Origin: Eledone cirrhosa
Taxonomy: Eukaryota
NCBI GenBank assembly: GCA_964016885.1
Contig: OZ024741.1
Location: forward strand, 47,926,001 to 47,990,000
Direction: 5' to 3'
Length of the DNA stretch: 64,000 bases
Shown: one piece after another, positions 1-44,642 of the stretch
Layout: each line of letters begins with the position of its first letter
Position numbering within the stretch: the stretch's first letter is position 1
Program-made: the position numbers and the translations under genes
Notes under the pieces: generated by a model
The model's input: the letters and a program-made list of their open reading frames with translations, nothing else
Databases searched by the model: none
What the model was told of the DNA's origin: nothing

Positions 1-270
1 CCCATCTCTCCCTCTCATCTCCTCCCCCTTTTTCATCCCCCCCCCTCTCTAAATATAATATTTTTCCCAATATCACACATCAATCTAAAACCACTTTTCA
101 TATGTAGATTTAAAACTGCACTATCCACAAGTGTTTTTTAGCCTTCATATCATGTTCTCCTGTTTTATCTGATGAAAACACAAATATTATTGCATGATGA
201 TGTTTGTTTTTGAAATGCGCATAATAAAATACATGGAACTCCTTTAACCATCTTTTGATCTTATATTATA
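1..270 (+). mobile_element. 3' part of AT-rich Penelope-like remnant with hammerhead
   Basis: Near-identical to 16068-16335 and 25456-25725. Ends in a (TA)n array. Confidence 0.65.
163..229 (+). ncRNA. Minimal type I hammerhead ribozyme (family H1)
   Basis: TTTTAT-CTGATGA-(AAACA...TGTTTT stem II)-GAAA-TGCGCA(palindromic stem III)-TA-ATAAAA. Confidence 0.78.
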
Positions 271-1706
271 TATATACATATATATATATGTATATATATA
301 TATATATGTATATATATATATCTATGCGAGCAAGACAACCACTCTTGCCTCAAGTGGGAAAACCCCCGTCCAAACCCATGCAAGCGTGGAACACGGACGC
401 TAAACCTGATGATGATGATGATGATGATATATGTATATATATATATGTATATATATGTATATATATATATGTATATATATATATGTATATATATATATAT
501 ATATATATGTATATATATATATATGTATATATATATATATGTATATATGTATGTATATATATATGTATATATATATGTATATATATATATATATATATAT
601 ATATATGTATATATATATGTATCTATATATATGTATGTATATGTATATGTATCTATATATATGTATGTATATGTATATGTATCTATATATATGTATGTAT
701 ATGTATATATATATGTATCTATATATGTATGTATATATATATGTATCTATATATGTATATATATATGTATCTATATATGTATCTATATATGTATCTATAT
801 ATATATGTATATATATATGTATCTATATATGTATCTATATATATATGTATATATATGTATATATATATGTATCTATATATGTATATATATATGTATATGT
901 ATATATATATATGTATATGTATATGTATATGTATATATATATATGTATATGTATATGTGTATGTATATGTATATATATATATGTATATGTATATATATAT
1001 ATGTATATATATATGTGTATATATATATATGTATATATATATGTGTATGTATATATATGTATATGTATATGTATATATATATATGTATATGTATATGTAT
1101 ATATGTATATGTATATATGTATATATGTATATATGTATATATGTATATGTATATATGTATATATGTATATGTATATATGTATATGTATATATGTATATGT
1201 ATATATGTATATATGTATATATGTATATGTATATATGTATATGTATATATGTATATATGTATATATGTATATGTATATATGTATATGTATATATGTATAT
1301 ATGTATATGTATATATATATATATATATGTATATATATGTATGTATATGTATATATATATATATATATATGTATATATATATATATGTATATATATATAT
1401 GTATATATATATATGTATATATATATATGTATATATATATATGTATATATATATATGTATATATATATATGTATATATATATATGTATATATATATATGT
1501 ATATATATATATGTATATATATATATGTATATATATATATATATGTATATATATATATGTGTATATATATATATGTATATATATATATGTATATATATAT
1601 ATGTATATATATATGTATATATATATATGTATATATATATGTATAAATATTAATATATATATATATATATATATGTATATATATATGTATATATATATAT
1701 ATATGT
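270..1706. repeat. Degenerate (TA)n/(TATG) microsatellite array containing an RTE 3' tip at 322-428
   Basis: Direct inspection. 322-428 matches the RTE 3' UTR end and has a (GAT)n tail. Confidence 0.95.
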
Positions 1707-1707
1707 A

Positions 1708-2048
1708 TTTCATTTCTCATTTCTTTTTACGTCCACTTTTCCCTGCTTGCAAGGGTGGGACGGAAACTGATGCTGGCATGATTTCTACAGCTGGATGCCC
1801 TTCCTAACACCAACCTCATTTACAGTGAGTGCTGGGTGCTTTTTTGCCGTGGCACCTCCACGACCACTTTGCAGTGGAATGATAGGGGATCCCAGTCCCT
1901 ATCATCTCATTTCTACAGCTGAGTAAACTGGAGCAATGTGAAATAAAGTGTCTTGCTCAAGGAAACAACACATCACCCGGTCTGAGAATTGAACTCACAA
2001 CCTTTCGATTGCAAGGCAATGCTCTAACCACTAAGCCATGTGCCTCCA
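1708..2048 (-). mobile_element. tRNA-derived SINE with RTE-like 3' tail
   Basis: Reverse complement of 45267-45607. Head has A-box TGGCTTAGTGG and B-box GAGTTCAATTC, and the tail shares the taggaagggcatccagctgtagaaa block with the RTE. Confidence 0.8.
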
Positions 2049-2078
2049 TATATATATGTATATATGTATATGTATATA

Positions 2079-41005: not shown

Positions 41006-41130
41006 ATGAATGAAACAGTTCTAGTCCTGTAAAAGTAATTTTTATATATATAATAAAGACACCTATACTCTACCAACGTATTGAGTACCTTTTTTAACTG
41101 TGGTTAACCCCCGACACAACTCGGGTATCA
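41006..41130 (+). mobile_element. Half-hammerhead PLE remnant of family H4
   Basis: atgaatgaaacagttctagtcctgta and gtattgagtacct...actgtggtta both match 36717-36830. Confidence 0.62.
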
Positions 41131-42015
41131 ACAGGAACTTGTCTGATGATCCTGAGTAACAAGACTCATCACTTAGCCCTAATAAAGAATATTTAAACTC
41201 TACTTTGATATTCTCACGTCTGTCAATACCTCACAGTTATATATATATATATTTGAAAAGGGAGAAAGGTTCTATGCCAAACAGGTTATAGAGAAAAAGT
41301 AGAATTGGAAAAAGCTCGGAAAATATATTTAAAGAATCTGTTTTTCGTTTTTTCTTCTTTGGTCCGTTATAGGGACATTATTGAAAAAGATGAGAGGAAC
41401 AATTTAAAAAAAAAAAGGAGTTTTATATTATATATAAAATATTACTGGTTTCGATGTAATCCATCTTATCAAATGTTGAATATTACAATTAAAAAGAATT
41501 AAAAATTTAAAATTTAAAATTAAGTGTGTTCATCTTGTTGAGAAGAAGATATGAACAGACCTGCTTCAAAACTTAATTTTAAATTTTGCAAGCCCAATGT
41601 TCTAACCACTAAGCCATGCACAACTTCTTTTTAGCAAATATCAGTTATTTATACTCCTTAATACTACAGTCACTGTAATAACCATGTTGTGTGTAAAAAA
41701 ACTCCATAGTGGACTACTTCCATATATTCAGTTAAAGGTCACATAAAAAAGGCATCTTTCAAATTAGGTTTTCTGATGAGGCTAGAGTGAAAGCAGATAA
41801 CATTTGGACGACAAAGCCATACACAGTTTATTTCCTAACCCATTTTAAAAGTTGCAGTGGAAGTTAGTGACTAGGTCAGAAATAAAAATTTAGACACCCA
41901 GAAATATATTTTGTGTTTTTGAATTCCCCAAAAATTTACTATCTGTAATTGCTTTAGCTTCAACATATTGTCTCATATCCAGTTACTTGCTAGTCAAGTG
42001 CACCTCAAATATATA

Positions 42016-42093
42016 CAGGGTGTCCCCAAACATGTATACTCACTTTTATTAGAATACCATTGAAGAGTGTGTACATATTTATTGCCCACCCTG
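42016..42093. mobile_element. Small Tc1-like MITE; right end included in a 71-bp tandem duplication to ~42205
   Basis: TA-CAGGGTG...CACCCTG-TA. Confidence 0.6.
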
Positions 42094-42284
42094 TATATAT
42101 ACTGGTGCTAGGAAGGGCACCCAGTATATATACTAAGTGTGTACATATTTATTGCCCACCCTGTATATATACTGGTGTTAGGAAGGGCACCCAGTATATA
42201 TACTACTGCCAAAAACTAGTCCCACCCTTTCAAGTAGGGAAAAGCGGACGTAAAATGATGATGATGATGATGATAATTGTCGTC

Positions 42285-44642
42285 GTCATCATCATTTAAT
42301 GTCCATTTTCCATGCTAGCATGGGTTAGACAGGTTGTCCTGTTTGAGGCAAGTTGGGTCAGGTGACCATATCTTGCTCACATAGAACTGTTTCTGGCTTG
42401 GTTTCTATGGCTGGATGCCCTTTCTAATGCCAACCATATTTACAGTGTGTGCTGGGTGCTTTTTGTCGTGACACTTACACGACCACTTTACAGTGTGGGC
42501 TGTATATATCTATATATAGCCGTCGAAACGGCTTGAGGTCTGCCGTCGGGGTTAAACATTTTCCTATATATATATATATATATATATATATATATATATA
42601 TATATATATATACACACACATATATATGTATGTATATTGGATTATTGTCCCAAATTCTGTTTTGAATATATTTTTATCTGACAACACCTGATTATGGATG
42701 CCTAGCTGACCCTTCTGGTCCTCACACACCAATACCTACACACTCACGCACATACATATATAAACATCCCCAATTGAATACACAGGCATAAACATGTACA
42801 TACATATATGCAAAAATATATATGTATACACAGACAAGAAGGCCTGCCTATGCACATAAACAAATTACATACCCGATGCGTATGAAGGATGACAGCTGCA
42901 TAAAAAGGTGCAGAGCACTAGAAGTTGATGGAAACCGCGGAGTGGGGAGACCCAAGATGACCTGGGATGAGGTGATAAAAGCCGACCTTACCCAATTACA
43001 CCTCTCAAAGGCAATGACACATGACCGTGACCTCTGGCGTCACGCAGTAATACAGAGTACCCGACCTCCCATGGGTACAAGCTGAAGCATATAGACAATA
43101 TGCCACCACCGCAAGGTGGTCGTGGAGGTGCCACGGCAAAAAAGCACCCAGCCCACACTGTAAATTGGACGTGTAGGCGCCACGAAAAAGCACCCAGCAC
43201 TCACTATAAATGAGGTTGGTGTTAGGAAGGGCATCCAGCTGTAGAAATCAAGCCAAATCAGTTCCTGTATGAGCAAGGCATGGTCAGCCGACCAGACACT
43301 GCCCACAACAGGACAACCCGTCTAACCCATGCTAGCCTGGAAGAACGGACGTAAAACGGTGATGATGATACATCCACTCAAAGAAATAGGGCAGAAGTTT
43401 ATATCATCCTCATCATATAACCAACATTTCACCAATCACTACAAACATCATATATTTTGTTGAATCACCAATTTGATGAGCAGATCGATACTTGAGTTGG
43501 GTCTGTAACTCCCATAGGTGACTTTGAGCGAATCATCTGTGAAACATGTGTAACAGGTCGATACACAATAAAAACATAAATACATGTAAATGAAACTTAA
43601 TTTTTCTTAATAAATACACTCTGCCTGTGCATCGAGTGTTTGTATTGATACCACCACCAGATATTCACTGAATCACATACATTATATATATATATATATA
43701 TATATATACTGTAAACGTGGTTGGTGTTAGGAAGGGCATCCAGTCATAGAAAACCCGCCAGACAGTCCTATACGAGCAAGACAACCAATCTTGCCTCAAG
43801 TGGGAAAATTCCCGTCCAAACCCATGCTAGCGTGGAAGATGGACGTTAAACGATGATGATGATGATGATGATGATAAGCCATGCTAGCGTAGAACATCGA
43901 TGTTAAATAATGATGATTATGATAGCAGGGTAGACTACAAAGAGGTCAGGCAGAAAGCTAGTCGACAAGTATTCTTAGCAAAGAAGGAAGCAGAGGAACA
44001 AACATTCAAATATGTTTTGCAGCGTGAGGACCAGAAATGGGAGGTGTTCAGGATTGCATGGCAGTGGGTTAGAGAAAAAGTACACAGTACTCACTATAAA
44101 TGAGGTTGGCGCTAGGAAGGGCATCCAGCTGTAGAAACCAAGCCAAAATCGGTTCTGTACGAGCAAGACATGGTCACCTGACTTGGCATTGTTCATAACA
44201 GGATAACTCATCGAACTCATGCCAGCGTGGAAAAATGGATGTTAAACGGAGATGATGATGATGATGTAATATGTATGTATATGTGTGTTTATATATATAC
44301 ATATATACATATATATATCATCATTACGTTTTACGTCCGTACTTCCATACTAGCATGGGTTAGACGGGTCGTCCTGTTGTGGGCAGTGTCCAGTTGGCTG
44401 ACCTTGTCTTGCTCATACGGGAACTGATTCTGGCTTGATTTCTACAGCTGGATGCCCTTCCTAGCGCCAACCTCATTTACAGTGAGTGCTGTGTACTTTT
44501 TTTCCATGGCGCCTACACGTTCACTTTACAGTGGGAGGGGTGGGGGCATATTTCTATATGCTTCGGCTTGTACCTGTGGGAAGTCGGGTCTTCTGTATTA
44601 CTGCGTGATGCCAGAGATCACGGTCCTGTGTCATCGCCTTTG
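42285..44642. mobile_element. Cluster of 3' fragments of older RTE subfamilies in both orientations
   Basis: Examples: 42876-43368 (+, [12 protein letters not shown]...), 43709-43875 (+), 43925-44265 (+), 42285-42500 (-), 44318-44642 (-). All have the aggaagggcatccagc core and (GAT)n tails. Confidence 0.8.
43473..43557 (+). ncRNA. Degenerate hammerhead in an old PLE remnant
   Basis: tTGATGA-GCAGAT...ATCTGT-GAAA-CATGTG-TA-ACAGG. C3 is mutated and the 5' arm of stem I is lost. Confidence 0.45.

Follow-up and report, generated by a model that had tools for sequence, protein, structure and literature searches.

The stretch of the Eledone cirrhosa genome analysed here, 64,000 nucleotides of contig OZ024741.1 (assembly GCA_964016885.1, positions 47,926,001 to 47,990,000 of the forward strand; hereafter the window, in whose coordinates positions are given), contains eight complete minimal hammerhead ribozyme motifs of type I. 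With a probability of roughly 0.85, they represent hammerhead-bearing 3' ends from several families of Penelope-like elements (PLEs) with Hydra-type motifs, which reside in (TA)n tracts of an intron of an LRRK1-like gene, occur at a density within the genomic range and are likely passive remnants by which the host pre-mRNA is not cut to any measurable extent.

All eight motifs had been picked out beforehand in a reading of the letters alone (below, the sequence-only reading), and all were recovered by a descriptor scan that allowed one mismatch in stem II. Each carries the core elements CUGAnGA, GAAA and UH together with stems I to III in type I order. By family, they comprise three copies of H1, two of H3, two of H4 placed back to back and one of H2 on the minus strand:

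161-231, 16228-16298 and 25616-25686, plus strand: H1 hammerheads
14598-14652 and 24021-24075, plus strand: H3 hammerheads
4127-4082, minus strand: H2 hammerhead, with H17 at 4086
36692-36644, minus strand, and 36699-36747, plus strand: H4 hammerheads

Position H17 of the six sense motifs falls at 223, 14647, 16290, 24070, 25678 and 36742, in exact agreement with the cleavage sites predicted beforehand. A palindromic stem III or loop had been proposed as a recurrent feature. This applies fully to H1 and H3, in which stem III is a perfect, dimer-competent 8-nt palindrome, whereas stem III of H4 is interrupted and palindromic at the loop centre only, and the palindrome of H2 is broken by a central mismatch.

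In principle, such motifs could be chance matches in AT-rich repetitive DNA. Their stems are short, stem II of H4 is weak (3 bp with a U.U pair at its base), and no hammerhead family was present among the 150 of 304 Rfam matches listed, those listed being microsatellite noise. However, the relaxed descriptor matched none of 100 block-wise dinucleotide shuffles of the window and found no motif in ten shuffles of 400 kb. A strict descriptor demanding perfect proximal stems retained six motifs and was matched by 3 of 200 block-wise dinucleotide shuffles. Moreover, the motifs exist in thousands of copies at a fixed position downstream of PLE open reading frames (ORFs), and across H3 copies (13 distinct rows) 92% of the cells in stem II are paired, as opposed to at most 56% when the stem is slid. 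H3 stem II also contains one compensatory exchange, from C-G to U-A, which likely marks a single subfamily split within these 13 rows; further stem swaps between subfamilies are visible in a set that was itself selected for pairing. The shuffles and the family structure refute chance as an explanation, leaving it with practically no probability, and the minimal hammerhead motifs of type I are confirmed as real.

Judged from the sequences surrounding them, the motifs are the 3' ends of PLEs with Hydra-clade motifs. The genome contains 4,719 exact matches to the whole H1 motif, 9,466 to the H3 pattern and 820 to H2, and 16,924 and 10,910 exact matches to the 3' halves of H4 and of a fifth family, H5, respectively, while reversed patterns gave no match for any of the five families. 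Twenty loci, chosen for widely spaced motif copies, were retrieved, and linkage to ORFs was scored in the loci listed, up to L228. Every family possesses among these an ORF for a reverse transcriptase (RT) with a C-terminal GIY-YIG domain that points at the hammerhead: four of four loci for H1 (L213-216), two of three for H3 (L219 being mixed), three of four for H4 (L220 being mixed), both listed for H5 and both listed in full for H2. Intact RT/GIY-YIG ORFs of 786-873 aa exist. This linkage bears out the Penelope origin suggested by the sequence-only reading. Its view of the families as unrelated is contradicted by the five family proteins, which share 36-51% identity. With regard to the clade, DKT is found in all three full ORFs and CxCX5C in all four ORFs that reach the nuclease; both are named as Hydra-clade marks in section 11 of PMC8557442. 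YRDD is present in four of five ORFs, the H3 piece being degraded. In the RW motif the third residue is T or R, and a flanking family has RWK. In a count restricted to cysteines, H2 and H5 have one each and H4 has two between the GIY half and the YIG half, and H1 missed the pattern. The GIY-YIG domain match was weak in a profile search (E 0.06). The H5 repeat measures 3.1 kb and the units of H1 and H2 are longer, so the Hydra-clade length of '<3 kb' does not apply here; in PMC8557442 this is a general and not a diagnostic trait. The elements in the window are as follows:

1..266, plus strand: H1-family 3' end (hammerhead 161-231) with a short end that runs into (TA)n 43 nt past H17
3942..7948, minus strand: 5'-truncated H2-family PLE with RT end and GIY-YIG ORF (7948-6380), long 3' untranslated region (UTR) and long tail
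14158..14800, plus strand: H3-family 3' end with a short inverted arm and a long tail (153 nt); hammerhead 14598-14652
15279..16333, plus strand: H1-family 3' UTR fragment with a short end and without an antisense arm; hammerhead 16228-16298
36631..36828, unstranded: H4-family foldback, its minus-strand motif with a short end and its plus-strand motif with a long tail; predicted to form a single hairpin of ~64 bp

The H2 hammerhead lies 2.25 kb after the stop of its RT/GIY-YIG ORF, and the element as a whole is 92.7% identical over 4.0 kb to a longer copy (L229).

The 3' ends of these elements are sharply defined. Each of the five families has two discrete ends (a bimodal distribution), both of which run into (TA)n. 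The approximate modal distances from the cleavage site are 43 and 129 nt for H1, 46 and 141 nt for H2, 54 and 153 nt for H3, 21 and 89 nt for H4 and 17 and 97 nt for H5, and the tails are 68-99 nt long. A TA run within 400 nt terminates 135 of 140 family loci, nearly all at the two fixed distances, and likewise all eight motifs of the window. In many insertions, an arm with the short end is fused to an inverted arm that carries the long end, and 24 of 49 sampled motifs have an opposite-strand twin within 1.2 kb. For the H1 motif at 161, the antisense twin is located at -414, just outside the window, on a long-tailed inverted arm. Inverted 5'-truncated copies with a one-sided tail belong to the PLE anatomy described in PMC8557442, and the combination of a short end with an inverted long end agrees with the demonstration, in an anole element, of two start sites inside the RNA (PMC11167929). 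Following published PLE work, the GIY-YIG domain would nick AT-rich DNA, and the RT would start internally at two sites bounding the tail and then abort early. The outcome would be a 5'-truncated copy, often fused to an inverted second copy. The ribozyme would be selected for its action on the element's own tandem RNA, likely as a dimer or assisted by protein, and would be a passenger in a host intron.

A bulged hairpin is common to the tails and starts a few bases beyond the short end; its elements are RCTC, a stem-loop, a bulge of 2 nt and GAGY. In long-ended copies this pattern occurs downstream of the ribozyme in 97 of 188 cases and upstream in 0 of 188, with ~0.2 in shuffles; note that the pattern was derived by eye from these same tails, which makes the count partly circular, and that overlapping loci count some copies twice. 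The hairpin is present in 10 of 17 motif groups, with upper stems that differ yet stay paired, and hairpin-bearing tails include those of H1, H2, H4 and H5 (in the window, 36768-36791 on the plus strand). It was not matched in the other 7 of the 17 groups, mostly short-stem, retrozyme-like families, and in H3 it was found in 3 of 24 copies; the main H3 subfamily has a longer insert. We regard the hairpin as a candidate binding or start signal for the RT. In literature searches on octopus hammerheads and this hairpin, which listed Craig 2021 and Frangieh 2024 alone as directly relevant, no description of the hairpin was found; subscription papers and bioRxiv supplements lay outside this scope and may affect the novelty of both the hairpin and the motif count given below.

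In addition to complete motifs, the window holds fragments of the same families:

17109..17299, unstranded: H5-family foldback of two 3' halves cut inside stem II, with the long tail on the left arm and without a catalytic 5' half
26148-26338, unstranded: H5 foldback in duplication copy B, partner of 17109..17299
41006..41124, plus strand: degenerate H4-like 3' half with tail hairpin
42517..42560, plus strand: H5-like end, 3' half
43464..43690, plus strand: degenerate hammerhead of a small family, C3 changed to U, with tail hairpin
56630..56810, unstranded: degenerate foldback without a hammerhead core, carrying the tail word of H4 and H5, in a later intron

The half copies reported earlier are true fragments. 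Those at 17187, 26226 and 42518 are 3' halves of H5, a family whose full copies have a U3-A8 core, that at 41006 is H4-like, and that at 43473 has lost C3 while other members of its small family keep intact cores. The copy at 56707 is the coreless foldback, situated in another intron. The U3-A8 core is used by at least two families, namely H5 (L224, L270) and a second one (L213, L087); standard descriptors miss this core, which has been described for Schistosoma PLEs (PMC4209133). At 41135-41175 on the plus strand, a CUGAUGA word sits in a small hairpin without a GAAA half and is not a hammerhead by the descriptor.

The host gene was identified through its exons. In a homolog search, an exon upstream of the window proved 77-80% identical to LRRK1-like proteins of two Octopus species, and one LRRK1-like protein (P0002) could be aligned to 15 collinear plus-strand exons covering aa 6-830. 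The exon that ends at aa 471 is directly followed by the one at 46248. A phase-1 GT-AG intron of ~53.7 kb separates the two, and their junction reads IIRI/Q/SLLELQ as in P0002.

1..46247, plus strand: window portion of the 53.7-kb LRRK1-like intron, donor ~7,475 bases before the window
46248..46387, plus strand: LRRK1-like exon, aa 472-518 of P0002, closing the intron
51899..52075, plus strand: LRRK1-like exon, aa 519-577
58231..58338, plus strand: LRRK1-like exon, aa 578-613
60080..60175, plus strand: LRRK1-like exon, aa 614-645

All eight motifs lie inside this one intron, and the foldback at 56707 follows two introns later. The exon alignment and the GT-AG junction therefore substantiate the earlier placement of the motifs in a single intron of an LRR-ROC gene, with six of them on the plus strand and sense to the gene. 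A meaning of this sense-strand excess is not supported, as five sense motifs stand against four antisense ones across the located gene after the duplicate is collapsed. A homolog search with the exon at 51.9 kb returned no match, and 262 kb of downstream sequence yielded no exons for the 3' half of the gene (aa 830-1910). A scaffold gap of 200 N is located 3.9 kb past the last LRRK1-like exon found (continuous coordinate 85883, L015). A COR-A match elsewhere on the contig did not match P0002. A further PLE in a later intron of the gene (L013-L014, continuous window coordinates 73924-77675) combines a 775-aa RT/GIY-YIG open frame with a 375-aa frame upstream of it and a divergent pair of hammerheads; it looks Neptune-like. 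Another PLE nuclease region, arranged as a foldback, occupies about -3300 to -1900 (L001) in the same large intron.

Part of the motif number is due to a tandem duplication of ~9.4 kb:

9920..19171, unstranded: duplication copy A, with RTE-like long interspersed nuclear element (LINE) and H3, H1 and H5 insertions
19321..27903, unstranded: duplication copy B, with H3 24021-24075, H1 25616-25686 and H5 foldback 26148-26338

The two copies differ by 25 substitutions in ~6.2 kb of non-microsatellite sequence (about 99.6% identity). Copy B starts with a chimera in which sequence flanking a third LINE copy of 94% identity is combined with copy A, and this chimeric junction suggests unequal crossover, by which the duplication would later have doubled H1, H3 and H5. 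The proposal that the duplication supplies identical partners within one transcript would hold for the H3 pair and for H1 at 16228 and 25616; H1 at 161 is an independent insertion. Alternatively, the assembly could have placed two haplotypes in tandem, in which case the second H1, H3 and H5 would not reside on the same chromosome. Copies that are about 99.6% identical and yet differ by hundreds of bases in their microsatellites are in line with such an artefact. Across four contig sets no piece spans the junction, which gives no verdict in either direction. The window, however, contains no N gap, and the start of copy B is chimeric as predicted for unequal crossover, so that we regard an artefact as rather unlikely.

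The sequence-only reading had singled out the window for a special collection of motifs. This does not withstand comparison with the rest of the genome. In 80 spaced 10-kb pieces taken at round coordinates from large contigs, a sample that is not strictly length-weighted, 49 motifs were found in 800 kb, distributed over 23 of the 80 pieces. This corresponds to 61 motifs per Mb (bootstrap 38-88) and to an estimated ~183,000 motifs in the genome (112,000-262,000), excluding U3-A8 cores and half copies. For comparison, 126,247 type I motifs are given for the axolotl (PMC7229834). The flanks of the window carry 28 motifs in 200 kb. By resampling, at least eight motifs in 64 kb are expected with P = 0.11, and at least six, with the duplicate collapsed, with P = 0.25. 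Motif density rises with TA content (rho 0.41), which amounts to 21% in the window compared with 7% on average, and the eight motifs trace back to five insertions (H1 at 161, H2, H3, H1 at 16228 and H4). What the window shows is ordinary for this genome, which is saturated with elements of this known class. Head-to-tail hammerhead repeats with a unit of ~311 nt were observed elsewhere, at L246:8596-9720 and at about 2100-2460 of L020. Such retrozyme-like arrays are a far more plausible setting for dimer cleavage than the window is.

Could the intronic motifs nevertheless affect the host gene? Identical sense copies, chiefly H1 at 16228 and 25616, might pair via the palindrome of stem III, exchange strands of stem I and cleave the intron, thereby lowering or retiming LRRK1 mRNA. 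These two motifs have identical intact cores, are both sense, share one intron and lack an antisense arm, and minimal PLE hammerheads, which remain uncleaved as monomers, show weak cleavage as dimers in vitro (PMC4209133). On the other hand, the partners lie 9.4 kb apart, as compared with ~310-470 nt in the tandem arrays of this genome, and the H3 dimer is predicted to be unfavourable once a loop penalty is applied. Stem I pairing was calculated not to exceed 0.04 for any of the six sense motifs in 300-nt contexts, equilibrium folding being a rough guide. H1 at 161 is preceded by a perfect 119-nt antisense arm and H4 is predicted to fold into a single hairpin of about -100 kcal/mol; in both cases, antisense arms would trap the sense motif in double-stranded RNA (dsRNA), which affects two of the six. 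The motifs show no sense bias, and the layout depends on a near-identical duplication without a spanning contig. Furthermore, the ribozyme of the anole PLE depended on protein, and RNA-seq gave no read ends at its site (PMC11167929). Taken together, dimer cleavage of this intron is highly improbable. A diffuse effect, not specific to the locus, could arise if the motifs, of which thousands of identical copies would be transcribed inside introns, occasionally cut in trans or with the help of the element protein. The 4,719 exact H1 copies, the intact ORFs of 786-873 aa and the protein-assisted cleavage of the Poseidon element (PMC11167929) are compatible with it, while an antisense twin accompanies about half of the motifs sampled and a load of this size would itself argue against frequent cutting. 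We consider this variant improbable as well, albeit less so than locus-specific dimers.

Some observations weigh against the motifs being inert remnants of Hydra-type PLEs. The assignment to the Hydra clade rests on protein motifs and not on a tree, and the passive status of the motifs is itself something we infer. In the folding calculations, the strand-swapped H1 dimer reaches -31.9 kcal/mol versus a two-molecule minimum of -33.7 kcal/mol, and would still be slightly favourable after a crude penalty of 14 kcal/mol for the 9.4-kb loop. Ten presumed introns of small-GTPase-like genes, delimited by ordered Roc-model halves that were not confirmed as single genes, contain three motifs in 103.6 kb (one sense, two antisense), a density below 61 per Mb from numbers too small for a conclusion. 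In Xenopus, introns are depleted of tandem retrozymes (bioRxiv 10.64898/2026.07.22.740005). Even so, cleavage of the host pre-mRNA is likely negligible.

The elements closely resemble known systems. With Hydra-clade PLEs, including Hydra-1_Obim from Octopus bimaculoides, which has a hammerhead and a (TA)n preference according to the supplement (Craig et al. 2021, PMC8557442), they share the RT with C-terminal GIY-YIG domain, DKT, CxCX5C, a 3'-proximal hammerhead and (TA)n targets, and with PLEs in general the inverted 5'-truncated copy with the tail at one side. They differ from the Hydra PLEs of that paper in their many families of thousands of copies each, units of at least 3 kb with long 3' UTRs, tails of 68-99 instead of 30-40 nt, and T or R instead of K after RW. 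Like the minimal hammerheads of metazoan PLEs (Cervera and de la Pena 2014, PMC4209133), they have a short palindromic helix III, a long helix II and a U3-A8 variant, and occur mostly as solitary truncated copies with opposite-strand pairs 100-700 bp apart, whereas the load given there is about 2,000-9,000 per genome as against an estimated 112,000-262,000 here. Anole Poseidon (Frangieh et al. 2024, PMC11167929) likewise has two discrete ends bounding the tail, an AT-rich target and a hammerhead just upstream, but belongs to another clade, and its start site is an AC-rich stem-loop as opposed to the bulged hairpin inside the tail here. Non-LTR retrozymes (Cervera and de la Pena 2020, PMC7229834; bioRxiv 10.64898/2026.07.22.740005) are similar in their type I fold, palindromic helix III and relation to PLEs; in contrast to them, the window motifs are in no head-to-tail array, the nearest identical motifs on the same strand being 9.4 kb apart. 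The short head-to-tail repeats with one hammerhead each that characterise non-LTR retrozymes are absent from the window.

The repeats of non-LTR retrozymes measure 170-400 nt. Among the other features of the window, a LINE with endonuclease, RT and PHD domains lies at 47869-51012 on the plus strand, and related copies are found at 10078-13801, 19480-23202, 28241-30774 and 52982-55671 (-); one copy has an open frame of 1,047 aa. Presumably, they are of the RTE type. An unclassified repeat at 18737-18950 has a very high summed contig depth. Of three further plus-strand fragments, 38944-39579 resembles a Tc1/mariner transposase, 33723-35676 a second LINE type and 60326-61012, which had no Pfam match, a retrotransposon nuclease end.

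The locus itself carries little weight, as any TA-rich 64 kb of this genome looks alike; were intronic dimers to cut host pre-mRNA, a load of this size would influence gene expression across the whole octopus genome. Of greater interest are the genome-wide load and the covarying tail hairpin. Tentatively, and at somewhat less than even odds, we propose that the genome carries ~180,000 complete minimal hammerheads in many Hydra-type families, that the tail hairpin likely positions the RT between its two start sites and that about half of the motifs are paired as sense and antisense copies, which would give rise to dsRNA in introns and shut off the ribozyme they carry. With young high-copy families, long open ORFs, two sharp ends and a shared hairpin, start-site choice and the formation of inverted ends by PLEs become directly testable.

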